Below, one piece after another: positions 6,488-57,117 of a stretch of DNA of 64,000 nucleotides. Within the stretch, counting starts at the first letter, position 1. Each line of letters begins with the position of its first letter. A program made the translations under genes and the position numbers. The stretch comes from Methanomassiliicoccales archaeon. Its GTDB lineage: Archaea > Thermoplasmatota > Thermoplasmata > Methanomassiliicoccales > JACIVX01. The notes below the pieces were generated by a model, which saw nothing but the letters and a program-made list of their open reading frames with translations, was not told where the DNA came from and searched no databases. The DNA is taken from the NCBI GenBank assembly GCA_038850735.1, contig JAWCLO010000001.1, positions 16,138 through 80,137 on the forward strand, in the 5' to 3' direction.

Positions 6488-6490
6488 TAC

Positions 6491-7510: not shown

Positions 7511-7549
7511 TCCCGTGTGCCTCTAAACTCGGAACTCGATTAAAATAAG

Positions 7550-7567
7550 ATCAGTATTAATACTGAT
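7550..7567. promoter_or_regulatory. Perfect 18-bp palindrome ATCAGTATTAATACTGAT in the argC/argG divergent promoter; candidate operator
   Basis: Verified base by base. It abuts a TATA-like TTATTTTAAT (minus strand, about 7539-7548) roughly 30 nt upstream of the argC ATG. The ACTGAT half-site recurs at 7569-7574 and 7611-7616. Confidence 0.45.
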
Positions 7568-7725
7568 GACTGATTTGAGACAAAATGAAAAAAAGCCTGT
7601 TCCCAACTAGACTGATGTTCTTCTGAACCTGAAATGTCCAAAAAAGGACTGCTTTATATTTAATTAGTCTTCGATAAGTCATCAATATTTTATAATAACC
7701 GGAAGTTCTACACGGTTCGATAGCA

Positions 7726-8985
7726 ATGGCATCCAGCATTTCAAAGAATAAAAGAGTGGTTTTGGCATATTCGGGCGGTCTTGATACATCGGTAGCCATA
7801 AGATGGCTAAAGGAAAGATACGGTTTTGAAGTAATCGCCGTGTCGGTCGATGTCGGACAACCCGGTAATATTAATGAAGATATTGCAAGGGCGAAGCAGA
7901 TAGGCGCAGTAAATGCATATGCTGTAGATGCAAAGGAGGATTTTGCCAAAAACTACATTTTTCCAGCACTCAAAGCCAATGCTCTATACCAAGGAACATA
8001 TCCCCTAAGTACTGCGATTGCCAGGCCACTTATTGCAAAAATCCTCGTTGACGTTGCAAATAAGGAAAATGCAAACTACATTGCGCATGGCTGCACCGCC
8101 AAGGGTAATGATCAGGTGAGATTCGACGTCTCGATAGGAGCGCTTGCACCCCACATTGAAATCATTGCTCCTATGAGGGAATGGGTAATGACGAGGGAGG
8201 ACGAAATCGAATATGCAAAGATTCATAAGATACCCATTAAGGTGAAGAAAGAGAGTCCATACAGTACAGACGAAAACCTGTGGGGCAGAAGTGTGGAATG
8301 CGGACTACTGGAAGATGCTACCCAAGAACCACCAGAAGATGCGTTTGAGTGGACGGCTTCTCCTTTGAATGCACCAGATGATCCGGAATATATTGATATT
8401 GGATTTGAAAAAGGAATTCCAGTATCCCTCAACAATGAATTTATGGAGCCAGTCAAAATCATAGGAAAACTGAATGAATTGGCTGGTAAGCACGGTGTGG
8501 GAAGAATCGATCACATAGAGGATCGACTGGTAGGGATCAAATCCCGTGAGGTTTATGAATGCCCTGCGGCTACTGTTCTAATAAACGCTCACCGTGATTT
8601 GGAGAAACTCGTGCTGCCAAGGGATGTGCTCAGTTTCAAGAGAATTGTTGAACAAAAATATGCTGAACTGATTTATGATGGTCTTTGGTTCAGCCCATTA
8701 AAAGAAGCGCTTGATGCATTTATTGAAAAGACCCAAGAATTTGTAACTGGGAAAGTCAGAGTTAAACTGTACAAAGGAAGTGCAATACCAGTGGGAAGAA
8801 GCTCTGAGTTCTCAATGTATGAAGTTGCATTGTCAACATATGATAAAGGAGACCGATTTGATCACACCGCTTCGAAGGGATTTATTTATGTTTGGGGACT
8901 TCCATTGAAAACTATTGCGGCGATTCGGAAAAAGCGGGTGGAATCAGGTGAGCAACAAGACGCTATGGCAGGGAAGATTCGATAA
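7726..8985 (+). CDS. argG: Argininosuccinate synthase
   Basis: 419 aa with the AYSGGLDTS ATP-binding motif. An AT-rich TATA-like box at about 7685-7696 precedes the ATG. Confidence 0.93.
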   Translation: MASSISKNKRVVLAYSGGLDTSVAIRWLKERYGFEVIAVSVDVGQPGNINEDIARAKQIGAVNAYAVDAKEDFAKNYIFPALKANALYQGTYPLSTAIARPLIAKILVDVANKENANYIAHGCTAKGNDQVRFDVSIGALAPHIEIIAPMREWVMTREDEIEYAKIHKIPIKVKKESPYSTDENLWGRSVECGLLEDATQEPPEDAFEWTASPLNAPDDPEYIDIGFEKGIPVSLNNEFMEPVKIIGKLNELAGKHGVGRIDHIEDRLVGIKSREVYECPAATVLINAHRDLEKLVLPRDVLSFKRIVEQKYAELIYDGLWFSPLKEALDAFIEKTQEFVTGKVRVKLYKGSAIPVGRSSEFSMYEVALSTYDKGDRFDHTASKGFIYVWGLPLKTIAAIRKKRVESGEQQDAMAGKIR

Positions 8986-10393
8986 GGGAATGCTTGATCA
9001 AGTCCTCGAATTCACCTCCTCTTTGAATCTCGATAAACGTCTCGCATGGTACGATGTAGTTGGTTCAATAGCACATGTAAAGATGCTCTCTAAACAAGGC
9101 ATCTTGAGCGATAAAGAATGTAAAGCTATTGTTGATTGCCTGAGAAGAATGCTTGAGAAGATAAACTTGGGTGAGTTCAATCCCCACCATAGTTTTGAAG
9201 ACATCCATTCCTATATAGAATTTGAAATTGTCAAAGAATTGGGTGATACGGGAAAAAAAGTACATACCGCTAGAAGTAGAAATGACCAAGTTGTTACCGA
9301 TTTCAGGATGTTCGTAAGAGATGCAGCTCTTGAATTAATGACACTGATCTGTGATCTTGAGAAGACACTTTTGGCATTGGCAAGAAAGCATACAAAAACA
9401 GTAATGCCAGGTTTTACTCACCTTCAGCATGCCCAACCGATTACCTTAGGCCATCATTTACTTGCTCATTTTGCAAGGTTTGAAAGAGATTTTATGCGAT
9501 TTGCCAAGAGCTACGAGCGAATAAACGTCTCTCCACTTGGAGCAGCAGCGATGGCTGGTACAACATTTGAGATTGACAGATTCTTCACAACTCGACTGCT
9601 TGGGTTTAGATATCCTTCGAAAAATTCGATTGATGCAGTTTCAGATCGGGACTTTGTGGCAGATTTCATTTTCAACTGTAGTATGACGATGATCCATCTT
9701 AGTTCACTATGCGAAGAGCTCATTATATGGAGCACTCCTGAGTTTGGATTTATTGAATTCGAGGACGCTTACTCAACGGGTAGCTCGATCATGCCCCAAA
9801 AAAAGAATCCCGATATAGCGGAGTTAGTTAGGGCTCGATCTGCAAGGGTTATGGGGAATCTTAATACCATTCTAGGCGTGATAAAGAGTTTGCCACTCGC
9901 CTATAACCGAGATCTCCAAGAAGACAAGCCTGCTCTCTTTGACGCGTACGATACAACGAAATCCTGCCTGCGCATGCTCGCTGAATCCCTGTCGTCCATA
10001 AATGTCAATGTCGGGAAAATGAGGAAGAGTGCTGAGCAGGGGTATTTGAATGCGACAGATCTTGCAGACTATCTCGTGCTGAAAGGTATTCCTTTTAGAG
10101 AGGCTCATGAGCTCGTTGGAAAAATCGTCAAATACGCGATCGAAAATAACAAGAAACTCGAAGAACTTGATATTTTAGAGATGAAGAGATTCTCCGATAA
10201 GATTGACGATGATGTGGCTTCTTTTCTTTCAATCGATGCATGTATCGATAGGAGAAAGACATACGGAGGAACCTCTCCAGAAGCCGTCAAGAATCAAATC
10301 GCAGAATGCACGCTATTGTTGAAAAGACAAAGAAATTTCACTTCTTACGAAAAAGCTAGGCTGAAAAAAATATGGCAGAGACTTCTTTCATGA
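8948..10393 (+). CDS. argH: Argininosuccinate lyase
   Basis: Fumarate-lyase signature GSSIMPQKKNPD. The track start at 8915 would overlap argG by 71 nt. The in-frame GTG at 8948 gives VSNKTLWQGRF, the usual ArgH N-terminus. The start choice is an inference. Confidence 0.9.
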   Translation: MSNKTLWQGRFDKGMLDQVLEFTSSLNLDKRLAWYDVVGSIAHVKMLSKQGILSDKECKAIVDCLRRMLEKINLGEFNPHHSFEDIHSYIEFEIVKELGDTGKKVHTARSRNDQVVTDFRMFVRDAALELMTLICDLEKTLLALARKHTKTVMPGFTHLQHAQPITLGHHLLAHFARFERDFMRFAKSYERINVSPLGAAAMAGTTFEIDRFFTTRLLGFRYPSKNSIDAVSDRDFVADFIFNCSMTMIHLSSLCEELIIWSTPEFGFIEFEDAYSTGSSIMPQKKNPDIAELVRARSARVMGNLNTILGVIKSLPLAYNRDLQEDKPALFDAYDTTKSCLRMLAESLSSINVNVGKMRKSAEQGYLNATDLADYLVLKGIPFREAHELVGKIVKYAIENNKKLEELDILEMKRFSDKIDDDVASFLSIDACIDRRKTYGGTSPEAVKNQIAECTLLLKRQRNFTSYEKARLKKIWQRLLS

Positions 10394-12424
10394 TCCTTGT
10401 GCCAAAGCCCTAGCCAAGTTGACGATGTTGACTACCTGCATCCCGGAATCCGTGATTCTAATTGCATCCTGGAAATTTCTTTCGCAGAATGAGCATGCAG
10501 TGACGAGATGTGAAGCACCAGTCTTCTTCGCCTGCTCAAGGCGCTTCCCTGCAATGAAGGTTGCTAGTTCAGGATGACTCTTTTTCACTCCGGCACCAGC
10601 ACCGCAGCAAATAGCTCTATCCTTTGTAAATTCCATTTCAGTTAACACTAGGCCAGGAATCGACTCAAGGATCAATCGAGGGGGCTCAAAAATTCCTCTG
10701 TGCCTACCAAGGTCGCAGGGATCGTGGTAGGTGACTTGAAGATGCGATCTATCGAACGAAATTCGACCATCATCAATAAGTGATGCAATTGTCTGAGTGA
10801 TGTGCTCAATTTCAATGTCGAATGATGAATCATAATGTGAGTAGATAGATAGAGTATTAAAACAACCAGGACATGGGGTGATGATTTTTCTTACGCCAGC
10901 CTCTTTTATTTTCTGAATGTTCCTTTGCACTAATGATAAGAAAATGTCTTTCGCTCCAATCTTATAGAATGGTGATCCGCAGCACATTTCATTAGAACCC
11001 ATGTATGCAACATTAATACCCACCGATTGAAGAATTTCGACCGAACTTCTTGAGATTTCCGGGGCTCGAAGAGAATTGAAACAACCGGCAAAAAAAAGAA
11101 TCTCACCGCTTGTTGGCAAATCTAGACCATGAGCCCATTGTGGACGACTTCCAGAGGGTTCATTCCATGGATTCCCTGATGCTGCTACATTCTTAATCAT
11201 TTCTTCTTGTGCGGGCAGCGGCAAGAAACCCTGCTTAATCGCCTTATACCTCGCCTCTCTTATCAAATTGGGAATATCGATTCTTAGAGGACACATCTCT
11301 TTGCAGAGTCCGCATTCTGTGCAGAAGGTAAGGCCACCGCCAATAGCGTGTTCATACCCGTCAAGCTCAGCGGCGAAGCATACACCTCTTCCGCCAAGAT
11401 ACGCATGACTGCCAAAATCTGGACCAAGAATGTCGTAAACTGGACATTTCAATAGACAGCTTCCACAATTAATACAATATAACACTTCTTTGTTTTCAAT
11501 AAGGCTTCTGCCATTGTCAAGAAGTATAAGCACTACCTCCTTCGGACCGTGCATCCCGTAGAACATAATCTTTTCGATGTCTGCAGTTCTACTGGGAGCA
11601 CTGATGACATCAATAAACGAACTGTTCAGACTGCCGGTTCCATATAGAATCTGAATCTTCGCTAAATTCATAGCCTCATCGAGATTTGGCACGATTTTTT
11701 CAATTGAGCTGATTATGATGTGCTTCTTAGGGCGCCGAGCGCACGCTGTAATGTTTCCTTCATTGTGCACGAGAATGATCGATCCTTCTTCCGCAGCAAT
11801 GAAATTGGCACCAGTTATTCCAATCGACGCTTGAGAAATGAAGCACGTGATTTCATTTCTTATTGCCTCTGTGAGTTTCTCAGGCGTGGGCTCTATTTTC
11901 TGTCTCAAATGCTTGCTTAGTATTAGTGCAACATCGTATCTCGTGAGATGTGCCGCTGGACCAGTTGGGTGTACTGTACGTTCCTTGGCTACCTGAATTA
12001 TGCGGTCTCCTGCATCCGTTTCGATGCATACGATTCCTTTCGATTCAAGAAAACCCGTGAGCTCGATTTCCTTCGAAACGTTGGATTTGGATTTGACCAC
12101 AAGTTTCTCGCCTCCAATCTCATCCAGAATCATGTCAAGAGCTTCTTGCTTGGAGTGGGCGATTCGAACTCTAATGCCGTTTGCGCTCATGCGCTCAACA
12201 GCTTTTTTCACGATGCTAAGATCCCTAAATGTCTGCTGCCGGACTTCCCTTGCCCTTTCCATTCGCTCATTTAATTTTTCAATCATTTCCTTATTCTTTT
12301 CTTGCGAGTGTATTGCTGTTTCAAAAGCACGACGCATGCCCTCTAATTTCCCATAATTCTCTATTGCGCTTCTAATCATGGTATGCGTAATCTTCGCAAA
12401 GAAGTCCGGTGCGTTTTTCATCAA
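10388..12424 (-). CDS. Fusion oxidoreductase: N-terminal LUD (LutB/LutC-like) domain, 2x[4Fe-4S] ferredoxin domain, and two CCG cysteine-rich domains (LutA/HdrD/GlpC-like)
   Basis: 678 aa. Fe-S motifs CINCGSCLLKCP and CTECGLCKEMCP. CCG-type motifs (MCCGSPF, HDPCDLGR, ICCGAGAG). The N-terminal third resembles the lactate-utilisation LUD domain. Assignment is by motif recall. Confidence 0.7.
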   Translation of the reverse strand: MMKNAPDFFAKITHTMIRSAIENYGKLEGMRRAFETAIHSQEKNKEMIEKLNERMERAREVRQQTFRDLSIVKKAVERMSANGIRVRIAHSKQEALDMILDEIGGEKLVVKSKSNVSKEIELTGFLESKGIVCIETDAGDRIIQVAKERTVHPTGPAAHLTRYDVALILSKHLRQKIEPTPEKLTEAIRNEITCFISQASIGITGANFIAAEEGSIILVHNEGNITACARRPKKHIIISSIEKIVPNLDEAMNLAKIQILYGTGSLNSSFIDVISAPSRTADIEKIMFYGMHGPKEVVLILLDNGRSLIENKEVLYCINCGSCLLKCPVYDILGPDFGSHAYLGGRGVCFAAELDGYEHAIGGGLTFCTECGLCKEMCPLRIDIPNLIREARYKAIKQGFLPLPAQEEMIKNVAASGNPWNEPSGSRPQWAHGLDLPTSGEILFFAGCFNSLRAPEISRSSVEILQSVGINVAYMGSNEMCCGSPFYKIGAKDIFLSLVQRNIQKIKEAGVRKIITPCPGCFNTLSIYSHYDSSFDIEIEHITQTIASLIDDGRISFDRSHLQVTYHDPCDLGRHRGIFEPPRLILESIPGLVLTEMEFTKDRAICCGAGAGVKKSHPELATFIAGKRLEQAKKTGASHLVTACSFCERNFQDAIRITDSGMQVVNIVNLARALAQGS

Positions 12425-34492: not shown

Positions 34493-37400
34493 TTATCCAT
34501 TTTCTGGAAATATCCTTAGTCTAAAAGCCCATAGATCTGTGTTTCCTTCATTGCCAACTCCAAACAGTGGCGAAATAAAGCGGCTTGGCACCTCACAAAT
34601 CATCAATCCCATCGTGATAGTCGCATCTACGGGCTCCCTTTGTATTATCCCCAGCAAGGTGTAAACATTCGTTTCCATCATGACCGCCACACGAAACTTC
34701 AATTCCTGATTACATGAAAGGAATAGCTTAGAGAAACCCGTGAATGCAAATATCTCAAAGCGTAAATAGATATCTTGCAGAAAGGAAACAATTTCGTTCC
34801 TCGCAAATACCTCAGCATCTGGAGTTGTGATCCTTCGAATTGAGCTAGATATGACAGAAAGAGTGCTTTCAAGTGCTTTGGCAACAGTATCGCCTTTGAA
34901 TACGAGACTCACTGCGAAGCCTGTCCCAGTGATACAAGTAGCATCTGAGATTGTAACCACGACATCCAATTTGAATTCCAAAATAAAGTCGCCTACCGCC
35001 TCGATGCATTTTCTCAGTACTCTGCGAATTATTTCCTCTATTAGATTACCGAGTCCGTCTAAATCCGCGCTTGAAACTGAAAGCTCGGAAAACGCTCGTA
35101 ATGCGGCATCACTAAAAACCTTGTAAACCCAGTCGTCACTACTTGGAGTTAACGCATTTCTCCCATTTGCTTTTCCACGAGTCTCTGATTTGAATATCCA
35201 TCGATCGTTGCCATCATATGCTCGTTGCCACGTGCGATCGTCATTGTAAAAATCCGTTGTCAATGGCGCCATATCGACCTTGCGTCCCGAAGGATCAATT
35301 AGTGCAATACACTCCGATAATGGGAATTTCCATTCTCCCCCATTGTCTAAAACCTGACCTTGGAGTACAAGAATTCTGTAACCGTGTGGCTCAATGCAAT
35401 CCTCCTCTATAGTGGCAATTTCTTGAATTCCGTGCATAGTCTGGATTGACCAACCGGATAGACTTACGAAGCGATCAGTAGGATTGTACAATTCAATCCA
35501 TTCACGACCGAAATCGGTACCTGGGGGATTTTGCTCGTATTCATTTATGACAAGATGATTTGCAATGGGAGACCTATATTTGATCTCGAAGCCAGCATCA
35601 AGGGAACCGATCAAGCCTGGAATGGGAAGAGGTATTCTAGATAAAAATTGACCTATTACAGGAATGCTTGATAAGGCAAATCTTAATTTTTTGTATTGTA
35701 AAGCAAGAGGCATATGCAACTCAAGCGTCGAATTGCCGACTTTTCCCGTAACTTGAACGAAGTGGTTGAAAATTCTCATCAGTGGATCTACAAGTACGTC
35801 AAGAAACCATCGTTTTGACTGGATAGTTGCATTCGCAATGATATCGTAGTCTCCATTCGCCATTCGCAAGAATCTAATCGCTACAGATATGTTCGTGGTT
35901 CTATGGGAAAGCCAGCAAGTGATTCTAAGGATATCCTTAGTGAAACCAAGAGCAATCTCCAATGGATTGGTTACCACCTGGAATTTGAGACCCCAGATCG
36001 TTAAATTAAACTGGATCTTTCCTAACAAAGATATGAGATTATCGCAGATCCATCCGAGCACTGAATCCATACCGGCGACAAACAAATTTCTGATATTTTC
36101 GATGGCAAATTGCAATGTCGCCGAAAGACTCTCAACAAATCTAATAGAATATGTCGTCGCGGCACTCAATAAAACACCCATTGTTGATTGCAAACTATCG
36201 ACAATACTGATGAAGGGAGCAATCCCACCGCAAATTTCATTCCATATCTTTTCAAGAAAGTTGGCTACATCTCTCCCAAAAGTCGATGTAGATTGATAAT
36301 GGACTCCATGCAACGGCCATGCACTCTGTGCCGAAATTGAGAAGTCTAAATCAAATTCTATTTCTCGACTCATGGTCAATGGAAATTGCCCCAATAACCT
36401 ACTTTCTGGTGCGCTAGCAGATATTGAGATTAAGTAGGATCCCCTAACAGAAACATCCCATTGCGTGATATATGGCAGGAAAGTTAGATTGGTTATATTT
36501 GTTATATGGCGATTTGGATAATAGTGCGATTTCTCCTGGAATTCCCACGGTCTTGTTATCTGGATGAAAACACGCTCGTCATCAGAATTGTCGTCTGCCA
36601 TTTTGTCAAATTCATTACCTGCATTTATTATCTCAATTGACTCAAGAAGGACTCTTCCTGTATCGGTAAGCAATCGAAAACTCTTCAACTCTGGGGATGC
36701 TACAAAGATCTCGTCCCCTCGTAATTCAAAGGCATTCTCAATATCTCCCAATAGACGAGTTACCGTTTTCGTCAACATTGAATTGATTCCTGGGAGTTCT
36801 CCCACGATTCCTAACGCTAGGGATAGAATTTCACTGCGAAGGGGTCCGTATGAATAATCATCAATGGCTCCTAAAAATGCTTCCTTCAAGATCTCGATCA
36901 AATGCGATACCTTTATATCGAACATCTCAGCAATTTCGTTTTTCAAACCCCACTCTGTTGACTGTTCTATCTCACAGAGAATTTCGATTGTCGCTTTTCT
37001 TTCCGCTTCATCGTCAAAACTATATGAACTCAAGATTAAATCGTCAACAATTAGAGTTGCAAGGGATTCTATTGCGGCGTGTATCGATTCATTTTTCTTG
37101 AAAAGTTCCTGCTGATACTGTTCAAAAAAGTCTACCAAGGCTTCTCCCATGCTATTGAAAATAGATTTCAATCTGGCGGTTGCTTCAATCACGGACTCAA
37201 GACTTGAATTCGAGGATTGAAGAGCACGCAAAAATGATTCTTTAAGGGAAGAGGCATAAGAAATATTGTCTGCGGGATTGCGATTGATTTCGACCTGAGG
37301 AAGATTTTTAGAATCTCTGATTGCCAAAGCAATGGATTTCACAAAGTCAATGAGAGAATCAGCCAGATAATGAGTTTCTAGTTTGTATTCAATGGCGAAT

Positions 37401-38785
37401 TTCTTCCAAAGCTCGCTTGAGAATATATCTACAGAGGGAAAATCTAGGGGATAGTTTCCCTGGATACAAAATATAATATTTTCTCCGCGGCTGTTTGTCA
37501 AAACGACTTTATGAGCCGGAATATACACGCTCGCGTCAGGTCCTCCATAGTTAAAATACCGGTAATTACTAGCGGAATACCCTGCTCTTTCAAGAGTCGT
37601 CATCATCCAATTTATTATTGATTCTTCAATAGCACTATTGCCAAGAATCGATTCGATGAAGTTGGACAATGCTACTTCTGAAAGGTCTGCAGCCTGCTCA
37701 ATGGTGTTTACTAAATCGATGATATGCAGGTATTCAAGCCATCTAAGAACAACGGCATCAGCAGTTGCAAACAGGACCTGTGAAACCAACATTGAATAGC
37801 TATATTCACCTGCGGAAAAAAGTTGTAGAAACAGTTCTGCTGGATCGACCATGCCTGAGAAATTCTTATCAGATATTAGTCTCCAAGAGTCATAGGATGC
37901 GCTATCCGAGATTAGTGATGCGATCAAACGATTGTCCAGATTTCGTAGATATTTTCGATCTTCAATCAACAAAGCCAAGCGTATTGCATTCTTGACGTCT
38001 TCTTCTGTGAGAATACTAGCAGTACCGTATTCTCCAAGTTTAGCATCGACGCCGTATCCCTTCAATATTCTATCTTGAACAAGTGCCGTTAGTTGATACT
38101 TCACAATTTTCTCAAATTCTCCCCCATCATTCGAAATTGATTCGGATAACGTTGCAATCCTATTTGCTAAAAAGGGAATCGGAATATATATCGGCTTGGA
38201 GATCTCAAAGGTCTTCGTTAAGTTTCCGTGCGAAGAGGTTGCGAAAAGAGTGAAATTTCCACAAATGCAAAAATATGCAGGTACACTTATTTCATGGCTC
38301 TCTGCTTCATCATCTTCATTAATTGCCAATAATTCCTGATAAACTTCTCCCATACTTGCTTTCAAAAACGCAAGATAGACATCGAACTCTTCGACAAAGA
38401 TTGCATAGATCTCCGCATGCTTTGGGAAGGCATTGTCGACATACTCTTTGGAAGCTTCCCTAAATTCTCTATTTATTTCGCTTTCATCCATGATCGAGGA
38501 TTTTCCTATGATATCGAGAGCAATGAGGTATAGCGATTGCTGCAATTCATCAGCTGCTTCGCTCACCGAAGAGAACAGTTTATGCATAGTCTCAAAAGAT
38601 GGAGTTGCCGTATCATTTTCCGAGCTGTAGTCTGATACTAGCGCGATAGTCATGGAGCTGATTAATAATATAATGACAGCTACCAGCGAAAATGCCATTT
38701 GACCAGTTCTCGATCTTGTGTCACGATTGAAGATTCGTCTGCAACGAGAAGTCGGCTTCAAGAGAATTGCCATCATAATTGGCAA
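34493..38785 (-). CDS. Giant (1430 aa) uncharacterised protein: N-terminal membrane anchor, ~1000-aa unassigned region, lamin-tail domain (LTD), 222-aa unassigned C-terminus
   Basis: Uninterrupted ORF. The track start is TTG at 38785; an ATG-ATG at 38776 is more likely. A hydrophobic helix (AFSLVAVIILLISSMTIALV) follows a basic N-region. The LTD-like segment VINEYEQNPPG..EWIELYNP...GW.I maps to nt 35162-35551 (aa 1079-1208). The rest has no recognised motif. Confidence 0.75.
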   Translation of the reverse strand: MPIMMAILLKPTSRCRRIFNRDTRSRTGQMAFSLVAVIILLISSMTIALVSDYSSENDTATPSFETMHKLFSSVSEAADELQQSLYLIALDIIGKSSIMDESEINREFREASKEYVDNAFPKHAEIYAIFVEEFDVYLAFLKASMGEVYQELLAINEDDEAESHEISVPAYFCICGNFTLFATSSHGNLTKTFEISKPIYIPIPFLANRIATLSESISNDGGEFEKIVKYQLTALVQDRILKGYGVDAKLGEYGTASILTEEDVKNAIRLALLIEDRKYLRNLDNRLIASLISDSASYDSWRLISDKNFSGMVDPAELFLQLFSAGEYSYSMLVSQVLFATADAVVLRWLEYLHIIDLVNTIEQAADLSEVALSNFIESILGNSAIEESIINWMMTTLERAGYSASNYRYFNYGGPDASVYIPAHKVVLTNSRGENIIFCIQGNYPLDFPSVDIFSSELWKKFAIEYKLETHYLADSLIDFVKSIALAIRDSKNLPQVEINRNPADNISYASSLKESFLRALQSSNSSLESVIEATARLKSIFNSMGEALVDFFEQYQQELFKKNESIHAAIESLATLIVDDLILSSYSFDDEAERKATIEILCEIEQSTEWGLKNEIAEMFDIKVSHLIEILKEAFLGAIDDYSYGPLRSEILSLALGIVGELPGINSMLTKTVTRLLGDIENAFELRGDEIFVASPELKSFRLLTDTGRVLLESIEIINAGNEFDKMADDNSDDERVFIQITRPWEFQEKSHYYPNRHITNITNLTFLPYITQWDVSVRGSYLISISASAPESRLLGQFPLTMSREIEFDLDFSISAQSAWPLHGVHYQSTSTFGRDVANFLEKIWNEICGGIAPFISIVDSLQSTMGVLLSAATTYSIRFVESLSATLQFAIENIRNLFVAGMDSVLGWICDNLISLLGKIQFNLTIWGLKFQVVTNPLEIALGFTKDILRITCWLSHRTTNISVAIRFLRMANGDYDIIANATIQSKRWFLDVLVDPLMRIFNHFVQVTGKVGNSTLELHMPLALQYKKLRFALSSIPVIGQFLSRIPLPIPGLIGSLDAGFEIKYRSPIANHLVINEYEQNPPGTDFGREWIELYNPTDRFVSLSGWSIQTMHGIQEIATIEEDCIEPHGYRILVLQGQVLDNGGEWKFPLSECIALIDPSGRKVDMAPLTTDFYNDDRTWQRAYDGNDRWIFKSETRGKANGRNALTPSSDDWVYKVFSDAALRAFSELSVSSADLDGLGNLIEEIIRRVLRKCIEAVGDFILEFKLDVVVTISDATCITGTGFAVSLVFKGDTVAKALESTLSVISSSIRRITTPDAEVFARNEIVSFLQDIYLRFEIFAFTGFSKLFLSCNQELKFRVAVMMETNVYTLLGIIQREPVDATITMGLMICEVPSRFISPLFGVGNEGNTDLWAFRLRIFPENG

Positions 38786-38931
38786 TTCTGTAGGAGATTA
38801 AATTAGTTGAAGCTACGTGTAAATTACATCGCTGGTATTCATTGTTGTACGATAAGGTGTTTCCAACTCGTTGCCATTATAATCTTGTTGTTATTCCCTG
38901 ATTGTATATCTGATAAATTGGGTGAATTCTG

Positions 38932-39666
38932 CTAAATTCGATGAGGTTTTTTATCTCCAAACGGGGACATCATGAAAGTTTCAAGATATTCCACCAAAAA
39001 GGGATTGTCAGAGTAACCACAGATCGAATAATCGGGAGATGCAATCAGCGCTTTTCTTCCGTCACAAATAACATCAGTTGCGATCAGCTCTGTTCGTCTG
39101 AAAATTACGGTACATGGTGGAACCTTAACTGATGGTTCAGCAACTACTATTACCTCGACGCCCCTATTTACTGCTTCCCTAAATTTTTGCATAAATCGCT
39201 TTCTAATTGGGGGCATGGAAGGTGTGGAAATAAAAAATCGAAATGTTGATACTTCTAGAAGTTCTCCAATTTTCGCGAGTATTTTCTCACGACCCATAAT
39301 CGTATATACTAATTGAGGTGTGCCCTTCTCAGTGAGAACGCCTTGCATCCTTTCCAAGACATTGAATGCTGCATCAATTTCATCAACGAAGATTTTTCTC
39401 ACTTCTATCGGCGAGACTGCATGAAAAACAGCAGGTCGACTCTTTGTCATCTGCGCCAGTTTCCTCGATACGAGACTTTCTAGAACTTTATATGAAGACG
39501 TCCTCGGAATTCCTCCAATCTTTGCAATATCCTCGGCAGTCCCATGACCCTTTACCACTAGCGCGATATATGCTCTAGCTTCGTAATCGGAAAGACCCAA
39601 GTGCCTGAGTGTGTTTCGTATTTCTTCGTAATTGCTTAATAAACCGTTTAACTCGGATGGAGCCAT
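38932..39666 (-). CDS. TrmB-family transcriptional regulator (wHTH plus TrmB C-terminal domain)
   Basis: 244 aa. LGLSDYEARAYIALV...AEDIAKIGGIPRTSSYKVLESLVSRKLA is the TrmB winged-helix signature. Confidence 0.82.
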   Translation of the reverse strand: MAPSELNGLLSNYEEIRNTLRHLGLSDYEARAYIALVVKGHGTAEDIAKIGGIPRTSSYKVLESLVSRKLAQMTKSRPAVFHAVSPIEVRKIFVDEIDAAFNVLERMQGVLTEKGTPQLVYTIMGREKILAKIGELLEVSTFRFFISTPSMPPIRKRFMQKFREAVNRGVEVIVVAEPSVKVPPCTVIFRRTELIATDVICDGRKALIASPDYSICGYSDNPFLVEYLETFMMSPFGDKKPHRI

Positions 39667-39684
39667 TGAAGTTCCTCGTAATTT

Positions 39685-39703
39685 TGTAGCTATTGTCGCT
39701 ACA
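39685..39703. promoter_or_regulatory. Inverted repeat TGTAGC-N7-GCTACA in the trmB/tes divergent intergenic region; candidate TrmB operator
   Basis: Read directly. It lies 19 nt upstream of the trmB ATG (39666) and next to AT-rich TATA-like sequence (39704-39720). Confidence 0.3.
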
Positions 39704-39769
39704 TAAATATTAAATTATATGCTCTTTAATCAATGAGGTCGATCATTTGATGAAACCGAGCTGGTTAAA

Positions 39770-41320
39770 ATGATTGTAAAACAAAGTTCGTTACAAAAAG
39801 GACTCCCGAAAGATACTCAATCAATTTGCCCAGAATGCAGAAGAATTATATCTGCAAGAATATTCGAAGCCAATGGAAAAGTTCTAATGGAAAAGGAGTG
39901 CCCAGCCCACGGTAAATTCGTTGATACGTATTGGTCAGATGCAGAATTATACCTCAAGGCTGAGAAATTTGCGTACGATGGGATCGGGGTCATCGATCCT
40001 TTTATCAAAGATGCAACTGGATGTCCAGAAGAATGCGGCCTATGCAACCTCCATTTGAGTCATACTTCCTTGGCGAACATCGATCTAACAAATCGGTGCA
40101 ATCTTAGGTGCCCAATATGCTTTGCAAATGCAAATGCAGCGGGATACGTTTACGAGCCTTCATTCGAAGTAGTAGTTACAATGCTTAAGACATTGAGAAA
40201 TCAAAGACCCGTTCCCACCCCGGCTATCCAATTCTCTGGCGGAGAGCCAACGATATATCCACATATAACTGAAGTTGTGAAGAAAGCAAAGGAGTTGGGA
40301 TTTGCACAAATTCAGATCGCAACAAATGGCCTGAGACTCGCTCAAGATGAGGAATTTCTTAGACAGATATCAGAAGCGGGGCTAAATACAATCTACTTAC
40401 AATTCGACGGTTTGCGGGAAGAAATTTACATTAAGACTAGAGGTCGGCCACTTCTTGAGACAAAAAAGAAGGTTATTGACAATCTAAGAAAAATGGACAG
40501 GCATCCTTCTGTCGTGCTTGTACCCACGATCGTTAAGGGCGTAAATGATGACCAAGTTGGACCCATTTTGAAATACGCGATTGAAAACTCTGATATTATC
40601 AGAGGTGTTAACTATCAGCCAGTTGCCTTCACAGGTAGAATAAGCAAGGAGGAAAGAGACAAGGAGAGATACACGCTAACGGACTTGGTTCATGATATTG
40701 AGCTTCAAACAGGATATGCTTCAAAAGATGATTGGTACCCTGTACCAAGTGTTGTACCTGTATCGACATTTGTCTCTGCTATACTCAACCAACCGAAGGT
40801 TACGTTTACTGCTCATCCCCATTGTGGCTTAGCCACATATCTCTTTGTTAAAGATACTAATAACGTCATTCCTCTGACGAGATTCGTGGAAGTAGAACCC
40901 CTCTTTGAGGAATTGTTTTATCTTTCTGAGAGAACCGAGAGAGCTAGGATAAAATTGTTGGCAAAAATCAAGGCTCTAGGCATACTCCGGAAACATATCG
41001 ATAAAGAAAAAACACCAGAAGGACTCAAGATATCAGACTTCCTGCAACTGCTGAGTACTGTTTTAAGCGACGAGACAAAAGAAGGGCTCGCAGAATTCTC
41101 TTGGAACATGATGTTTGTTGGTGGAATGCACTTCCAAGATGCGTACAATTATGACATCGAGAGAGTAAAGAGGTGTGTGATTCATTATGCAGTTCCTGAT
41201 GGAAGGATCATACCCTTCTGCGCTTACAACGGCGGACCAACATACAGGGAAGAAATAGAAAGGAAGTATTCAGTTCCACTCGAAGAGTGGAGAAAGACTA
41301 GGGGTAGCGATTATACCTAG
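39770..41320 (+). CDS. Radical SAM protein, tetraether lipid synthase (Tes / GDGT-MAS)-like
   Basis: 516 aa. N-terminal rubredoxin-like CPEC...CPAHG, an extra cluster motif CPEECGLC, radical SAM CNLRCPIC and GGEPT. The length and architecture match what I recall for archaeal Tes. It is directly followed by ferredoxin and GGR. Confidence 0.7.
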   Translation: MIVKQSSLQKGLPKDTQSICPECRRIISARIFEANGKVLMEKECPAHGKFVDTYWSDAELYLKAEKFAYDGIGVIDPFIKDATGCPEECGLCNLHLSHTSLANIDLTNRCNLRCPICFANANAAGYVYEPSFEVVVTMLKTLRNQRPVPTPAIQFSGGEPTIYPHITEVVKKAKELGFAQIQIATNGLRLAQDEEFLRQISEAGLNTIYLQFDGLREEIYIKTRGRPLLETKKKVIDNLRKMDRHPSVVLVPTIVKGVNDDQVGPILKYAIENSDIIRGVNYQPVAFTGRISKEERDKERYTLTDLVHDIELQTGYASKDDWYPVPSVVPVSTFVSAILNQPKVTFTAHPHCGLATYLFVKDTNNVIPLTRFVEVEPLFEELFYLSERTERARIKLLAKIKALGILRKHIDKEKTPEGLKISDFLQLLSTVLSDETKEGLAEFSWNMMFVGGMHFQDAYNYDIERVKRCVIHYAVPDGRIIPFCAYNGGPTYREEIERKYSVPLEEWRKTRGSDYT

Positions 41321-41336
41321 ACTTGGAGGCATACAC

Positions 41337-41510
41337 ATGAAAGTAATTATCGAAAAGTGCATGCACTGTGGTGCCTGCGTAGGCTCCTGTCCATCTAATG
41401 CAATATTTTTGAATGAGGTGATCATTGATTTCCACCAAGAATGCAATCAATGTAGACGTTGCACAAAAGCGTGTCCAGTTGGAGCTATCCAAATGGAAGC
41501 TGGTGGTTAG
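41337..41510 (+). CDS. Small 2x[4Fe-4S] ferredoxin (57 aa), not in the supplied ORF track
   Basis: Hand translation gives MKVIIEKCMHCGACVGSCPSNAIFLNEVIIDFHQECNQCRRCTKACPVGAIQMEAGG. It contains two CxxCxxCxxxCP motifs. A GGAGG sits 8 nt upstream (41325-41329). Its TAG stop abuts the GGR ATG at 41511. Confidence 0.8.
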   Translation: MKVIIEKCMHCGACVGSCPSNAIFLNEVIIDFHQECNQCRRCTKACPVGAIQMEAGG

Positions 41511-42701
41511 ATGCAGTTGAAGGAATACGATGTCGTTATTGTCGGAGCTGGACCAGCAGGAAGCATGACTGCTAAATATGCAGCAGAAGGTGGCGCTCGA
41601 GTGCTGATGATCGAGAAGAGGCAGGAAATAGGTTCCCCCGTTAGGTGCGGTGAGGGGATCTCAAGGGCTTCTCTGGAAGAAGTTGGGATTAGGCCAGATA
41701 AGAGATGGATTGCTGCGGAAGTGGAAGGGGCAAAAATCGTTTCTCCAGGCGGCTATATATTCAGAATAAACGAAAGAATGGCAGGTAATGAGGTCGGAAT
41801 GGTATTGGAAAGAGTACTTTTTGACAAAGCGCTGGCAGCTGAGGCCGCAAGAGCTGGTGCCGAAATAATGGTGAAGACCTCGGCCACCGGTTTGATAAGA
41901 GAAGATGGAAAGATTACTGGGATAAGGGCTGTACATCATGGAGAGTCGATAAGAATTAAAGCTAAATGCGTCGTTGGAGCCGATGGATTCGAATCGCAGG
42001 TTGGTCGATGGGGTGGATTGGATACCACACTGAAACCAAATGATATCACGAGCTGCTTTCAATACAGATTGACGAACATTGATCACGACTATAGATATTG
42101 CGAATTCATCGTAGGGAGTCTTGCACCTGGTGGGTATATTTGGATTTTCCCAAAAGGCGAAGACACAGCAAACGTCGGCATAGGCGTATTATTATCCAAG
42201 ATAAAATATCCAGGTCAGGTTAAGGATTTGCTTGATCAATTCATCTCAAGGGATGACCGCTTGAAAGATGGCCAGCCACTAGATTGTGTGAGCGGTGCTG
42301 TGTCGGTGTCACCACCTCCAGACAAACTCGTTGCAGATAGCTTATTACTTGTAGGGGATGCTGCCAGAATTATTGACCCCATCACCGGAGGGGGTATCGC
42401 TCATGCTTGCATATCTGGCATGATGGCTGGAAAAGTCTTAGCAGAAGCATGCCAGGAACAAGATTTCAGTGAAAATAGGTTAATGGCATATGAAGAATCG
42501 CTGCGTGACAGATTGGAGAATAAACTGTGGAGAAACTGGATGGCGAAAGAAAAGCTCATAACACTATCTGATGAGATCTTTGACAAAATTGTAAAGACAT
42601 TAGCAGAAGTCGGTGTAGAAAAAATGTCCGTCGGTAATATATTAAAGGTCATCAAGGCCCGTCATCCGGAACTCATCAAGGAATTTGAAGAGCTTATCTA
42701 A
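41511..42701 (+). CDS. Geranylgeranyl reductase (digeranylgeranylglycerophospholipid reductase)
   Basis: 396 aa with the FAD motif YDVVIVGAGPAGS, RCGEGIS and the GDAAR...P.TGGGI motif. Confidence 0.88.
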   Translation: MQLKEYDVVIVGAGPAGSMTAKYAAEGGARVLMIEKRQEIGSPVRCGEGISRASLEEVGIRPDKRWIAAEVEGAKIVSPGGYIFRINERMAGNEVGMVLERVLFDKALAAEAARAGAEIMVKTSATGLIREDGKITGIRAVHHGESIRIKAKCVVGADGFESQVGRWGGLDTTLKPNDITSCFQYRLTNIDHDYRYCEFIVGSLAPGGYIWIFPKGEDTANVGIGVLLSKIKYPGQVKDLLDQFISRDDRLKDGQPLDCVSGAVSVSPPPDKLVADSLLLVGDAARIIDPITGGGIAHACISGMMAGKVLAEACQEQDFSENRLMAYEESLRDRLENKLWRNWMAKEKLITLSDEIFDKIVKTLAEVGVEKMSVGNILKVIKARHPELIKEFEELI

Positions 42702-42772
42702 TGAAGGGGCGAACGATCACGATCATTCAAATATTTGAAGGGGCGGCGAACTCGATACAGCGAGCAGCATGC

Positions 42773-43714
42773 CTAAACTTCATTATTTGACACGCTAAGA
42801 AGCAATCCGGGCAATTTCGTTTCCACGATGTACGGTACTCCACCCTTTTTCCTAATCGCTTCGCTCACTTTTTCGGGTTGATCGGTAAGCGCTATTATGC
42901 TTCCTCCGCCACCCGCTCCAGTTAATTTTGCTCCAAATGAATGGGGAGAACTCGCTGTAATGAGCTTTTCTAATGCGGGGGTAGATACGCCCAACATCGA
43001 CAACAGTTCTTGATTTCTTTTCATCAGTTCACCGAGAGCGACCAGGTCATTAACTCTGAGCTTTTTAATGCCATCAATCGCTATCTGGCCAATCTCCTCA
43101 ATGATATCGATTCCTGATCTGTTTGTCTCAACAAAGCGCCTTACCCTCTCCACAAGGGGGCCGGTTGGCGCGCTTATCCCGGTAAAGCCGATGACGATTT
43201 TCATACGAGGCACTTCGCAATGATGCACAAACCACTCCTTTAACCCGCTTGAGATTCTCCAAAGTAAATCGTCTCCGGGAATACTATTTATAAAAATCCC
43301 ATGTCCGTGAACGCACGTAGAGGTATCGACTGGACTAGCTCTTCCTTGGACAGCGAGCTCGACATCAAATGCTTTCTTTGCAACTTCCTCAGCCTTCAAG
43401 GTTCCCTTCATTGCGAAAAGTCCGCCTATCAAAGCCCCCGTAATAGCTGCCGATGATCCGAGACCGGATCCAGATGGCAAATCCGAATTCACTTTGATTT
43501 TCAAAGGTCCTCCTGTCCAATTCTTCTCGAGTGCGGCTACAATATAAGGATGATGTTTTCTTGAGAGGGGTTGATCATTGAACGTAAATTGCATGTCATG
43601 AGCAAGGGTGCATCGAAGTCGAAGAGAGATCGCGATCGCAATAGCTGGCTTTCCAAAAACGACGGCATGTTCGCCAAATAAAATGATCTTACCAGGCGCT
43701 GAGCTTGTGAGCAT
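42773..43714 (-). CDS. mvk: Mevalonate kinase (GHMP kinase)
   Basis: 313 aa with SAPGKIILFGEHAVV and the GHMP motif PSGSGLGSSAA. Confidence 0.88.
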   Translation of the reverse strand: MLTSSAPGKIILFGEHAVVFGKPAIAIAISLRLRCTLAHDMQFTFNDQPLSRKHHPYIVAALEKNWTGGPLKIKVNSDLPSGSGLGSSAAITGALIGGLFAMKGTLKAEEVAKKAFDVELAVQGRASPVDTSTCVHGHGIFINSIPGDDLLWRISSGLKEWFVHHCEVPRMKIVIGFTGISAPTGPLVERVRRFVETNRSGIDIIEEIGQIAIDGIKKLRVNDLVALGELMKRNQELLSMLGVSTPALEKLITASSPHSFGAKLTGAGGGGSIIALTDQPEKVSEAIRKKGGVPYIVETKLPGLLLSVSNNEV

Positions 43715-45024: not shown

Positions 45025-45603
45025 TCACAATCCGTATCTTAGCATGACTTCTTCGATAAGCTCATTTGGCGTCTTACCATTTAACTCTTTGCGGGGGTTG
45101 TTCCACCATTTCTCTTCAAATTCTTCTAGAACTTTGAAAAATTGAATGTCATCGGCAAAATCGGAACCCATTTCCTTTTCAAATTCATCTTGAAAAGCTT
45201 GCAACAAGTCCACATCATACTCGTGATTTACGACCATCACAGCTAAGTAATCATCAAGATTGCGAGCGAGAAGAGTTGAAATGTTTTCCGGGAGAATATC
45301 CATCATCATATCTAAAATTGCATTTGAGAGTGCCAAGAACATCAATTCCCTCTTCGCACGTTCTGGCATTTCTTCACCGTCAATTACTGAAGATAGGCCA
45401 TCAAACCAAAGATCCCGTAATATGTAAGAGCGCTTCGGATTCTTCTCAAACAATTCCTTCTCAAGTAGTTCGTCCTGCATTTCGTCAACATTCCTTTCTA
45501 ATATACCAATATTGTTTGCCTTTACTTCTGATTTCCCTTTATTCTTTTTTTCTTTAGACACAATCCTACACTCCTGTCCTCGATTGCATGGCTGCACACT
45601 CAC
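45025..45603 (-). CDS. Hypothetical acidic protein (192 aa)
   Basis: Intact ORF with a basic N-terminus and an acidic helical body. The C-terminal W..P...L.GKTPNELI motif is seen in several unrelated families, so no assignment is made. Confidence 0.4.
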   Translation of the reverse strand: MSVQPCNRGQECRIVSKEKKNKGKSEVKANNIGILERNVDEMQDELLEKELFEKNPKRSYILRDLWFDGLSSVIDGEEMPERAKRELMFLALSNAILDMMMDILPENISTLLARNLDDYLAVMVVNHEYDVDLLQAFQDEFEKEMGSDFADDIQFFKVLEEFEEKWWNNPRKELNGKTPNELIEEVMLRYGL

Positions 45604-46262
45604 AGCTCAAAAAATGAAAGGCCGCGAGAATGCATATAACTGAAGTTACTCTTGCATCCACAATCATGCATAAACCGTTCAGGGCTATTCTTAAATTGAC
45701 ATAAGGCTAATTTTTGATATTAAGGTGTCGATCGCAACCCAACGACGACCGCTGTTTACAATGCTGCTCTATATACGGATAATCGAAATCTCATTTTCTC
45801 GTATTGAATTGTGTACGAGTGAAATTTCCAAATAACTAAGCTATTTTTAACGCAAATTTTGCGTCTCACAGAGCACTCGAATCATGTATTTCGAAAATCG
45901 ACTATTTCGCGAAGTGCTATCCTATGCTTAATTAGGCTACCATCACGCATATTGATGGCAAATTTGCCGTTTCAAAAGAAGTCAATTCTGTGGGCTATCA
46001 ATCAAAGATATACCCACCACAGCAGATCCTTTTGCAAACGATTCCAAACATATTCTATCTATATCTCCTACTTCTTTATATCGCCTCCAGACACGGCATA
46101 TGGAGATGCGATGCACATATGAGCAAAAGTTCTTCAATTGTCGATAATCGACTAGCTAGGGCCGTTTATTGTGAGTAGCTTCTTGACAAAGATGTTACAG
46201 AAATATTTGAAACAATCACAAAGAAAATCATTATAATTTACAGAATCCTGTTAACATATCGT

Positions 46263-46609
46263 TTGAAAATTTGTATAACCGCAAAAGGGAATAAGATAAA
46301 CTCGGAATTTGATGAGTGCTTCTGCTCTTCTCCGTATTATCTTTTGTTGGATGATGAAACTTGTGAATTCTTAGTTTTAAGAAATACTGACGTTACTTTT
46401 GAAGCAAAGGGATTAAAATTGCAGAGACGCTTATCGAGAATGATATCGATATTTTAATTACTGGTCGTATTGGCCATGCCGCATTGAGAAGGCTTGAACG
46501 CAAAAGCATTTGCGTAAGAATCGTGCGGGAATCAAAAAAAGTAATAGATATGCTCGAAAACAATTATCCACGGATCGCTATCCAGCTATGCCAGAAATAT
46601 TCCTTTTGA
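46263..46609 (+). pseudogene. NifX/NifB-C-terminal-like (dinitrogenase FeMo-cofactor-binding fold) small gene, interrupted by a frameshift
   Basis: Frame 1 (TTG 46263) reads MKICITAKGNKINSEFDE...DVTFEAKG and then stops at 46457. The +2 frame continues SKGIKIAETLIENDIDILITGRIGHAALRRLERKSICV... to a TGA at 46607-46609. The two parts together make a ~115-aa NifX-like protein. The shift lies near the gcaaaggg run (~46405-46415). Confidence 0.55.
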
Positions 46610-46736
46610 AAATACGGTTGAAATCTGTGTAAACAAGAGTGATCAATCAAAGTGACAAGAGCAGTTCCAGAAAGCAATTGATCCTCAATGCCTCCGGGAC
46701 CGATTTTTTGAAAAATCCTCGAAGAAGCTCCAGAAG

Positions 46737-46846
46737 TGCGAGGGGCCGGATTTGAACCGGCGAACCTCTTCAGGAACAGATCTTGAGTCTGTCGCCATTG
46801 GCCGATGTGATCTCGCCCATCATTGACCAGGCTTGGCTACCCTCGC
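46737..46846 (-). tRNA. tRNA-Leu (anticodon CAA) with a 25-nt insertion (putative intron) in the D-loop
   Basis: Hand fold: acceptor GCGAGGG/CCCTCGC, D stem GCCA/TGGC, anticodon stem ACAGA/TCTGT with loop CTCAAGA, long variable arm TCCTGAAGAGGTTC, T arm GCCGG-TTCAAAT-CCGGC, discriminator A and no encoded CCA. It is 110 nt against 85 nt expected. Confidence 0.85.
46798..46822 (-). other. Putative non-canonical tRNA intron (D-loop, around position 20/21) within tRNA-Leu(CAA)
   Basis: The insert is TGATGGGCGAGATCACATCGGCCAA. The junction is ambiguous by up to 3 nt because CAA is repeated at both ends. A relaxed bulge-helix-bulge can be drawn: GATG/CATC helix, AAT bulge, GGTC/GGCC helix, AA(T) bulge, D stem. 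Confidence 0.6.
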
Positions 46847-47217
46847 AACAACGGATTTTCCTTATCAGCGGGTTCCTAATTAAATTTTATTCGAATGCCG
46901 TAATTCGGATCAATCGTGAGGAGTACTTGAAGATGCGATGCAGAGGATTTCCTCTCATGCGCATAACGAGCTCATCATGATAAGATTGTGCTATTATGAG
47001 CAGTCGTCGATAATCCAAGGACAATGATCAAGGAGCTACAGTGCCAGCTCCAATTGCAGATTCAAACTACTCATTGTAACTACTACTAATATTTGTGACA
47101 AAGGGATATCATTAGTTTTTTGATATTTTCTACAATCAACCAAATCCAGAGAAAATAGTGTTTGTCCAAATGTGAACCTGCTCTGAGTATAAATATGCGA
47201 ATTTGTATCATGGTCGA

Positions 47218-54174: not shown

Positions 54175-57117
<2,943 letters not shown>

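Follow-up and report, generated by a model that had tools for sequence, protein, structure and literature searches.

What is a protein of 1430 amino acids (aa), recognisable only by a lamin tail domain (LTD) in its C-terminal half, doing beside the membrane-lipid genes of an archaeon? The question is raised by an open reading frame (ORF) on the minus strand at positions 34493-38785 of a 64,000-nucleotide (nt) stretch of a Methanomassiliicoccales genome (contig JAWCLO010000001.1 of assembly GCA_038850735.1). This whole stretch was analysed and is called the window here; the ORF and its product are called the giant gene and the giant protein. An earlier reading of the letters alone (the sequence-only reading) had described the product as an orphan, membrane-anchored protein flanked by a TrmB regulator and an MscS channel, and its range, 34493-39666, takes in the TrmB-like gene as well as the giant ORF. 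As shown below, the protein belongs to a large, so far undescribed family of giant, predicted membrane-anchored surface proteins of Thermoplasmatota. On balance, we lean towards the reading that it is an outward-facing cell-surface scaffold with a structural or adhesive role in the envelope, which would derive from the large accessory proteins of pilin-like gene clusters and display an optional Ig-like module.

The giant protein belongs to a large family of Thermoplasmatota

The view that the protein is an orphan did not survive an exhaustive HMMER search with a profile of its LTD-free N-terminal 1074 aa. This search matched 338 representatives of 50%-identity clusters; 293 reach E <= 1e-10 and 193 reach E <= 1e-30. 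They are mostly 1250-1450 aa long and collinear over the whole profile. A word-indexed protein search returned only 6 relatives, and the same 6 were found with a 28-sequence alignment as query. The publicly named members all come from metagenome-assembled genomes (MAGs) of Thermoplasmata, Thermoplasmatota or Methanomassiliicoccaceae, where they are called 'lamin tail domain-containing', 'Ig-like domain-containing' or 'hypothetical'. Public MAGs therefore do contain annotations of the gene, although these reflect no more than its accessory LTD. For the family core there is no Pfam or NCBIfam model, and we found neither a solved analogue nor a description of it in the literature.

The genomic loci of family members, numbered with the prefix L, were collected in two ways. 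A profile search of genome contigs was keyed on the LTD peptide, and about 60 of the 80 loci that it returned encode LTD-only proteins (Nitrosopumilaceae, Methanothrix and others). Metagenome loci were found with a 6-sequence subfamily alignment. Loci L001-L024, the first set examined, are from Methanomassiliicoccales and related Thermoplasmata lineages. A relation of some Nitrosopumilus matches to the C-terminal domain of the giant protein was considered and rejected, the protein of L034 consisting of a Sec signal, an LTD and Ig-like repeats. A tblastn search of plasmids with member P0077 gave no match.

The ORF itself is sound. It was confirmed on the minus strand with its full 1430 aa, and a misassembly is ruled out by six full-length collinear homologues and dozens more from independent assemblies. 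The count of 1430 aa starts from a TTG codon. An ATG at 38776 (M4) would give a protein of ~1427 aa, the N-terminal length of which equals that of 1428-aa homologues. As the residues R-S-R-T-G-Q that precede M30 are conserved in these homologues, the true start lies upstream of M30, and it is probably the ATG at 38776 rather than M30, where public gene call P0001 begins. The possibility that the host is a Thermoplasmata-type cell had been raised from the letters, and it agrees with the archaeal 23S rRNA in the window and with the Methanomassiliicoccales MAGs as nearest relatives. The 23S rRNA gene is complete (54179-57107); as no 16S or 5S rRNA gene was detected within the 64 kb, the rRNA genes appear to be unlinked.

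Domain layout and predicted topology

The positions of the domains and of the neighbouring genes are given in Table 1. The basic N-terminus followed by one hydrophobic helix that had been noticed from the letters was borne out. Residues 1-29 have an isoelectric point (pI) of 12.0, the single hydrophobic segment of the protein spans aa 27-55 (Kyte-Doolittle peak 2.68), and the remaining ~1375 residues are acidic (pI 4.7). As the only helix is thus preceded by a basic and followed by an acidic flank, the positive-inside rule predicts an N-in, C-out topology.

Table 1. Features of the giant gene and its surroundings, with positions in the window
Feature	Position	Strand	Evidence and remarks
MscS-family channel, 441 aa	33061..34386	-	PF00924, 60.2 bits vs 20.2; PF21082, 22.3 vs 21
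Giant ORF, 1430 aa counted from TTG	34493..38785	-	uninterrupted
C-terminal alpha/beta domain, aa 1211-1430	34496..35155	-	conserved; 117/121 representatives
LTD insert, aa 1075-1210	35156..35563	-	PF00932; optional, 82/121
Second core block, aa 746-1074	35564..36550	-	long beta-hairpins, 86-residue helix (aa 836-921), beta-rich part; 121/121
Middle region, aa 401-745, mostly helical	36551..37585	-	most variable block; found in 100/121
N-domain, aa 56-400	37586..38620	-	helices, long three-stranded sheet, helical bundle; in 121/121 full-length representatives
Prepilin-like motif R-T-G-Q-M-A-F-S, then hydrophobic helix, aa 26-55	38621..38710	-	family logo; AlphaFold2 helix 30-57
Basic tail, predicted cytoplasmic and disordered, aa 1-25	38711..38785	-	pI 12.0 (aa 1-29); pLDDT ~40
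TrmB-like helix-turn-helix regulator, 244 aa	38932..39666	-	PF01978, 71.1 bits vs cutoff 25.6
Palindrome TGTAGC-N7-GCTACA	39685..39703	.	divergent intergenic region of Tes and TrmB (39666-39770), directly behind a TATA-like box (ATTTAATAYTTA)
Tetraether lipid synthase Tes (radical SAM)	39770..41320	+	NF045702, 669.5 bits vs cutoff 450; divergent from TrmB
Digeranylgeranylglycerophospholipid reductase homologue (GGR)	41511-42701		
Mevalonate kinase	42773-43714	-	

The only significant Pfam match of the giant protein is the LTD (PF00932, E = 3.5e-11; its 43.9 bits exceed the cutoff of 34.3), which covers aa 1075-1172 (nt 35270-35563) and profile positions 5-104 of 109. The LTD proposed from the letters at 35162-35551 (aa 1079-1208) therefore scores above the gathering threshold, and that range spans the whole inserted module. 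The statement that the rest of the protein falls outside recognised families also stands, in that no described family covers the ~1300 non-LTD residues, and nothing else was significant in Pfam, NCBIfam or PADLOC searches. A PHROG tape-measure match (E = 0.0015) was rejected as a chance result of compositional similarity over the long helix.

We built hidden Markov models (HMMs) of five blocks of the window protein (that of the N-domain from aa 30-400) and compared them with the 121 full-length representatives among the top 150 hits. In the 39 of 121 representatives that lack the LTD, the flanking blocks are joined by a linker of 4-80 aa. The LTD is therefore an optional insert of ~137 aa and does not define the family. 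The second core block carries the motifs SxWPLxGVxY, DPLM and IPxPxxG, and the helical bundle of the N-domain carries the conserved residues Q237, R239, D263, D314, Q336 and D343. In members of 1500-2150 aa the middle block is absent or replaced by ~1000 aa, so that the N-domain is separated from the second core block by up to ~1000 additional residues. In some members Pfam detects other domains instead, namely PKD, Big_5, GH25, transglutaminase-elicitor, C39-like peptidase or metallophosphatase domains. This variable set of added domains fits a scaffold that would display exchangeable extracellular modules.

Two loci are of interest for their architecture. The 1592-aa member of L133 (6007-10785) contains a GH25 lysozyme-type domain within the scaffold (aa 827-999, E = 2e-48), which suggests that some relatives display lytic enzymes on the surface. 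In L154, a Thermoplasmata MAG, the family gene is split (6001-9897 and 9830-10768): the first call, of 1298 aa, stops short of the end of the LTD and of the C-terminal domain, and an overlapping second ORF encodes these parts, due to either a frameshift or a sequencing error.

The giant proteins of the window and of L001 are 46% identical, against 58-86% for the neighbouring proteins. Fast evolution within an otherwise stable block of genes is typical of exposed proteins, which would suit the predicted location.

Predicted structure

AlphaFold2 models were made from family alignments for the N-terminal half (aa 1-770; predicted local distance difference test (pLDDT) 81.3, predicted template modelling score (pTM) 0.69) and for the C-terminal half (aa 740-1430; pLDDT 80.6, pTM 0.63). 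The first model consists of a disordered tail, a helix at 30-57, two more helices, a three-stranded sheet at 127-199 and then helical bundles. The second consists of long beta-hairpins, a helix of 86 residues, a beta-rich region, the LTD strands and an alpha/beta C-terminal domain. The LTD region (aa ~1058-1200) was modelled with beta strands only, at pLDDT ~80-90; no superposition onto a solved LTD was obtained.

Both halves were searched with Foldseek against the PDB and viral structures, as the sequence-only reading had proposed, without a meaningful match. Only spurious porin, dynamin-pair and tail-fibre matches were returned, with template modelling (TM) scores of ~0.1 and root-mean-square deviations above 17 Å. 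In profile searches of the PDB the long helix matched designed helical bundles, tape-measure proteins and coronavirus HR1, and nothing else was hit; we dismissed these matches because the similarity over this helix is compositional. The core thus appears to have no recognisable solved analogue, and since the models were searched as multi-domain pieces, a match at the level of single domains is possible.

The N-terminal motif and pilin-like relatives

Where could such a family come from? A sequence logo of 103 family N-termini reads [D][RKDE][RK][GA][RQNS][MV][PS]F[AS]hhAVhLLL. The G/A at -4 from the conserved F is present in 102 of the 103 N-termini and the F itself in 99, with a mean of 2.9 K/R within the 12 residues upstream. 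In the window the N-terminus reads R-S-R-T-G|Q-M-A-F-S-L-V-A-V-I-I-L-L. These sequences have the architecture of a class III signal, namely charged residues, G/A at -1 and then a hydrophobic stretch of ~20 residues. The window motif has T at -2 and a basic residue at -3, and the +1 position in the family is often R, N, S or K. The helix may be a signal anchor or a cleavable signal.

Further evidence comes from the loci of distant members (L092/L117, L118, L120, L126, L133, L140, L143, L144, L148, L151 and L154). Here the giant gene is directly preceded by a small gene A (~160 aa), a small gene B (~180 aa), or both. The product of gene B starts with '[GA]Q..h.DA' and a hydrophobic stretch, and where gene calls exist (L092, L154) its stop overlaps the start of the giant gene. 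Some of these loci, and four further soda-lake loci (L135, L139, L142, L149), also have a third gene, C, which is located downstream and in the opposite orientation. The small A, B and C proteins have sub-threshold matches to DUF7285, DUF7266, DUF7311 and TadE, and the giants of these loci and of a related subfamily score just under the cutoff of DUF7286. The distant members thus support a pilin-related origin of the family.

DUF7286 (PF23957, a 1000-position model of uncharacterised archaeal proteins) shares with the family the type of N-terminal motif and the hydrophobic helix. Its N-terminal ~270 positions align weakly but collinearly with members of the family (P0077, E = 1.2e-4; P0094, 3.4e-3; the L148 giant, 5.5e-6). 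However, the scores of members are all below the gathering score of 27 bits, the best being 25.5 over 46 N-terminal residues and the others 11.6-21.2. DUF7285, DUF7266 and DUF7311, which are weakly matched by the small neighbours of distant members, are companions of DUF7286. The closest relative of the family is an uncharacterised DUF at sub-threshold similarity. As we found nothing published on DUF7286 or its companion DUFs, the link adds no function.

The giant gene lies in a conserved lipid-gene neighbourhood

In the window and in L001-L024 the genes follow one order: mevalonate kinase, GGR (<-), ferredoxin (<-), radical-SAM (<-), TrmB (->), in some loci a C11 peptidase (->) and a Na+/H+ antiporter (<-), the giant (->), then MscS (->), a Na+/H+ antiporter (->) or nothing, and SerRS (<-). 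The same order is repeated in five more metagenome loci. As this synteny beside tetraether-lipid genes (Tes, GGR) is strictly conserved, the giant gene has been inherited vertically. Horizontal acquisition or a mobile element is ruled out by the strict synteny together with a composition within the range of the window. The impression that the locus is AT-rich was marginal when computed. The GC content of the giant gene is 0.410, against a mean of 0.441 +/- 0.021 for the 47 genes of the window (z = -1.5), which is inside their spread, and its third-position GC (GC3) has z = -0.9. The low GC of the MscS gene is confined to codon positions 1-2 (GC3 z = -0.1).

The lipid genes form a compact block (39770-43714); where the window has a gap of ~190 nt after Tes, related loci carry a small ferredoxin gene. 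Even without TrmB, as in L090/91, the giant gene retains these neighbours. In one Thermoplasmata clade (L004, L005, L012, L015-17, L019 and L020, also L011 and L024) it stands between two Na+/H+ exchanger genes that are paralogues of each other. The upstream one has the opposite orientation, while the downstream one is co-oriented and takes the place of MscS, so that the neighbour is again an ion-flux membrane protein.

Two other parts of the window are also of note. A stretch of 1.6 kb (45604-47202) has no ORF above 87 aa, a GC content of ~0.39, no Rfam match (the best, at E = 0.097, scores far under the gathering threshold) and no notable repeats. Next to it lies an acidic ORF of 192 aa (45025-45603, minus strand) with no Pfam or NCBIfam match and an unusually low GC at codon position 2 (z = -3.1); it adjoins a major facilitator superfamily transporter gene, and L001 has a DUF8423 gene at this place.

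A recurrent pairing with an MscS channel

The co-oriented flanks reported from the letters were found as described, with the TrmB-like gene 146 nt upstream and the MscS gene 106 nt downstream of the giant gene. They had been taken to suggest a regulated envelope or mechanosensing module. The MscS half of this proposal gained support, although the pairing is not universal, while the TrmB half is weak.

An MscS gene lies directly downstream of the giant gene in the same orientation in the window and in L001-3, 6, 7, 8, 10, 14, 23, 121, 141 and 150. It does so again in a second genomic context with the order RpoB (<-), RpoH (<-), EF-1beta (->), in some loci an ATP-binding cassette (ABC) transporter, giant (->), MscS (->), an amino-acid permease/Usp gene (<-) and, further on, a FlaK-like peptidase. 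MscS is present in 13-14 of the 15 loci of this type (L088, 89, 93-98, 100, 109, 114, 116, 155), at a distance of 18-190 nt from the giant gene, the shortest gaps being 18-30 nt. The giants of the second context lack the LTD and are ~20% identical to the window giant. The partner channels of both contexts are orthologous over their full length of ~430 aa, including the N-terminal transmembrane region (E = 1e-47 to 1e-60), whereas a second MscS of L089 matches them in the C-terminal domain only. As an orthologous MscS follows the giant in two unrelated contexts, the link between them is supported, and as the giants of these contexts are only ~20% identical, the pairing is old. These comparisons are real evidence for an old giant-MscS pair, which has been lost repeatedly.

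This raises the possibility that the giant and MscS are a functional two-gene module. The scaffold could act on the channel as a tether or gating modifier and so relay envelope strain or osmotic swelling to it; alternatively, both could be an osmoprotective, co-expressed pair in cells without a rigid wall. The adjacency in two unrelated neighbourhoods, with full-length orthologous channels, favours such a module. However, Na+/H+ antiporters replace MscS in the exchanger-bracketed loci listed above, and there is no MscS in L013, 18, 21, 22, 90, 91, 113, 122, 124 and 128-132, nor in the pilin-cluster-type loci. The adjacency may also be inertia, both contexts being rigidly syntenic blocks, and TATA-like AT-rich boxes in the 106-nt gap may give MscS its own promoter. 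We therefore regard a functional module as unlikely, while it is the best-placed of the alternatives. A bolder form is clearly less probable still: the giant ectoprotein and its dedicated MscS would be an ancient two-component mechanosensory device of Thermoplasmatota without a rigid wall, in which a scaffold of new fold on a pilin-derived helix passes envelope strain to the channel. If true, tethered gating of this kind would have no described precedent among prokaryotes, and one of the major components of the unexplained exterior protein layer discussed below would be identified as well.

The TrmB-like regulator and its putative operator

Could the upstream regulator control the giant gene, and MscS with it, in response to a sugar or another signal? 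TrmB lies immediately upstream in the same orientation in the window and in L001-3, 6-11, 13, 14, 18, 22, 23, 121, 141 and 150, and transcription from the TrmB promoter may continue into the giant gene, since a clear terminator was not seen. The TrmB-like protein has only 244 aa, and its sugar-sensing effector domain was not significantly detected (PF11495, E = 0.13, 11.9 bits against 22.2). The NCBIfam equivalogs TrmB, TrmBL1 and TrmBL2 reached 32-58 bits, against cutoffs of 500-650.

The neighbourhoods also argue against such control. Where the antiporter (sometimes with the peptidase) is inserted, TrmB stays beside the divergent Tes and not beside the giant; in L090/91 Tes is directly divergent from the giant, without TrmB; and the lineage with the RNA-polymerase context has no TrmB nearby, so that the TrmB-giant adjacency is confined to one lineage. 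The palindrome listed in Table 1 points the same way. One perfect copy per locus is present in the window and in 15 other loci, which include distant lineages (L004-7, L012-20, L022, L121). It always lies in the Tes/TrmB intergenic region, close to TrmB and upstream of it; no copy precedes the giant, and the window contains no second copy with up to 2 mismatches. The palindrome is probably the operator of the TrmB-like protein, and it hints at transcriptional control of the tetraether-lipid genes. Autoregulation and/or control of the lipid genes is more likely for this protein than control of the giant, and we consider a TrmB-regulated envelope module improbable.

What is the giant protein?

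In the reading we lean towards, the short basic cytoplasmic tail and the prepilin-like hydrophobic helix would hold the giant in the membrane, and the ~1375 acidic residues would project outward, with four conserved blocks (Ndom, Mid, Core2 and Cterm) that build an elongated scaffold. The LTD, predicted to be Ig-like and inserted between the last two blocks, would be an optional display module. The family would descend from the distantly DUF7286-like large accessory proteins found in archaeal pilin-like clusters, or have a common origin with them. In the lineage of the window the giant would stand alone beside the tetraether-lipid genes, probably co-expressed with a dedicated MscS-type channel. 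It would most likely contribute to the protein layer covering these archaea, in a structural and/or adhesive role. The S-layer-less Thermoplasmatales carry a disordered exterior protein layer of ~20 nm (PMC12448462), and the proposed scaffold fits this report. The data establish the gene and its family, the layout of its domains, the N-terminal motif, the topology prediction and the synteny; surface location, function, any processing and co-transcription are what we infer from them.

Several observations weigh against this reading. The window protein has no DUF7286 match even at E <= 1, and homologues of A, B and C are absent from the window and from 24 Methanomassiliicoccales-type loci. Foldseek gave no pilin, adhesin or S-layer structure. 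The canonical FlaFind-type pattern begins [KRDE][GA][ALIFQMVED][ILMSTV]..., and a relaxed pattern of this type fits only 19 of the 103 N-termini. Finally, the conserved polar residues Q237, R239, D263, D314, D343, H760 and D1000 could equally mark an enzymatic or ligand-binding site.

Does a prepilin peptidase instead process the giant, so that it works as a minor pilin or tip adhesin in or on a type IV pilus-like filament? The whole family shares the prepilin-like motif, and in distant members the giant gene shows translational coupling to small pilin-like genes. According to a 2026 preprint (10.64898/2026.04.22.720090), 'large adhesin-like proteins' occur in the system 2 loci of archaeal type IV filaments. 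In addition, a FlaK-like A24 peptidase gene lies 5-6 kb downstream of the giant in L088 (16001-16981), L095, L113 and L116; in loci of the L088 type, giant and MscS are followed by a permease/Usp fusion, an Arf/Ras-like small GTPase gene and then this peptidase. Against these points, Methanomassiliicoccus is reported to lack type IV pilus secretion ATPases in a census (PMC4858521). No ATPase, platform, pilin-like or A24 gene was found in the annotated part of the window (~25 of ~47 genes) or in the related loci examined, and no homologue of the A24 peptidase was found by tblastn in the window or in L001-24, which cover only a fraction of each genome. Foldseek recovered no pilin fold, and a protein of ~150 kDa is unlikely as a filament subunit. 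We thus consider a working pilin or tip adhesin very improbable.

Least probable of all is a membrane-tethered extracellular enzyme with a catalytic or ligand-binding site in the conserved helical N-domain. In favour of it, the polar residues Q237, R239, D263, D314, Q336, D343, D506, H760 and D1000 are invariant or nearly so over 50-100 sequences that are only ~20% identical, and some relatives have acquired hydrolase domains (GH25, C39-like peptidase, metallophosphatase). Against it, no enzyme family was matched by sequence or fold, and the conserved residues are scattered over several blocks and may be structural.

Comparison with known surface proteins

The proposed surface scaffold resembles three further groups of proteins, each in part. 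Like the system 2 adhesin-like and class III signal proteins (PilY-like DUF2341, Methanococci), the giants are big, predicted to be extracellular and equipped with a pilin-type N-terminus, with small pilin-like proteins alongside in some lineages and variable Ig-like or enzyme modules. However, no sequence or fold relation links the two, and the lineage of the window has no pilin, ATPase or platform genes nearby and pairs with MscS instead. With the LTD surface proteins of Nitrosopumilaceae and Methanothrix the giants share the LTD at 30-40% identity, but this domain makes up ~9% of the giant and is absent from 39 of 121 relatives, and the Nitrosopumilus protein of L034 shares nothing else with it. 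As the LTD is a small and optional part, 'lamin tail domain-containing protein' names an accessory module and not the family. Finally, S-layer and envelope glycoproteins and the exterior layer of Thermoplasmatales are comparable in that the giant is large, acidic and predicted to be extracellular, and comes from a Thermoplasmata lineage. Unlike S-layer proteins, the giant would be anchored by an N-terminal helix and not by a C-terminal or lipid anchor: its only hydrophobic segment is N-terminal, and it matched no S-layer family in Pfam or NCBIfam.

Implications

Thermoplasmatota include the wall-less Thermoplasmatales and the gut methanogens of the Methanomassiliicoccales, and their cell covering and mechanical protection are poorly known. 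If the giant is an ordinary adhesin, the value of these results lies mainly in a better definition of the family. The pilin-type N-terminus, in a group reported to lack pilus ATPases, bears on the reuse of type-IV-filament parts. The recurrent pairing with an orthologous MscS leads to a specific hypothesis on osmotic or mechanical protection. As a widespread family of 1250-2150 aa proteins that are predicted to face outward and have no recognisable fold beyond an optional, predicted Ig-like insert, the giants are a concrete candidate for a component of the envelope of these archaea.

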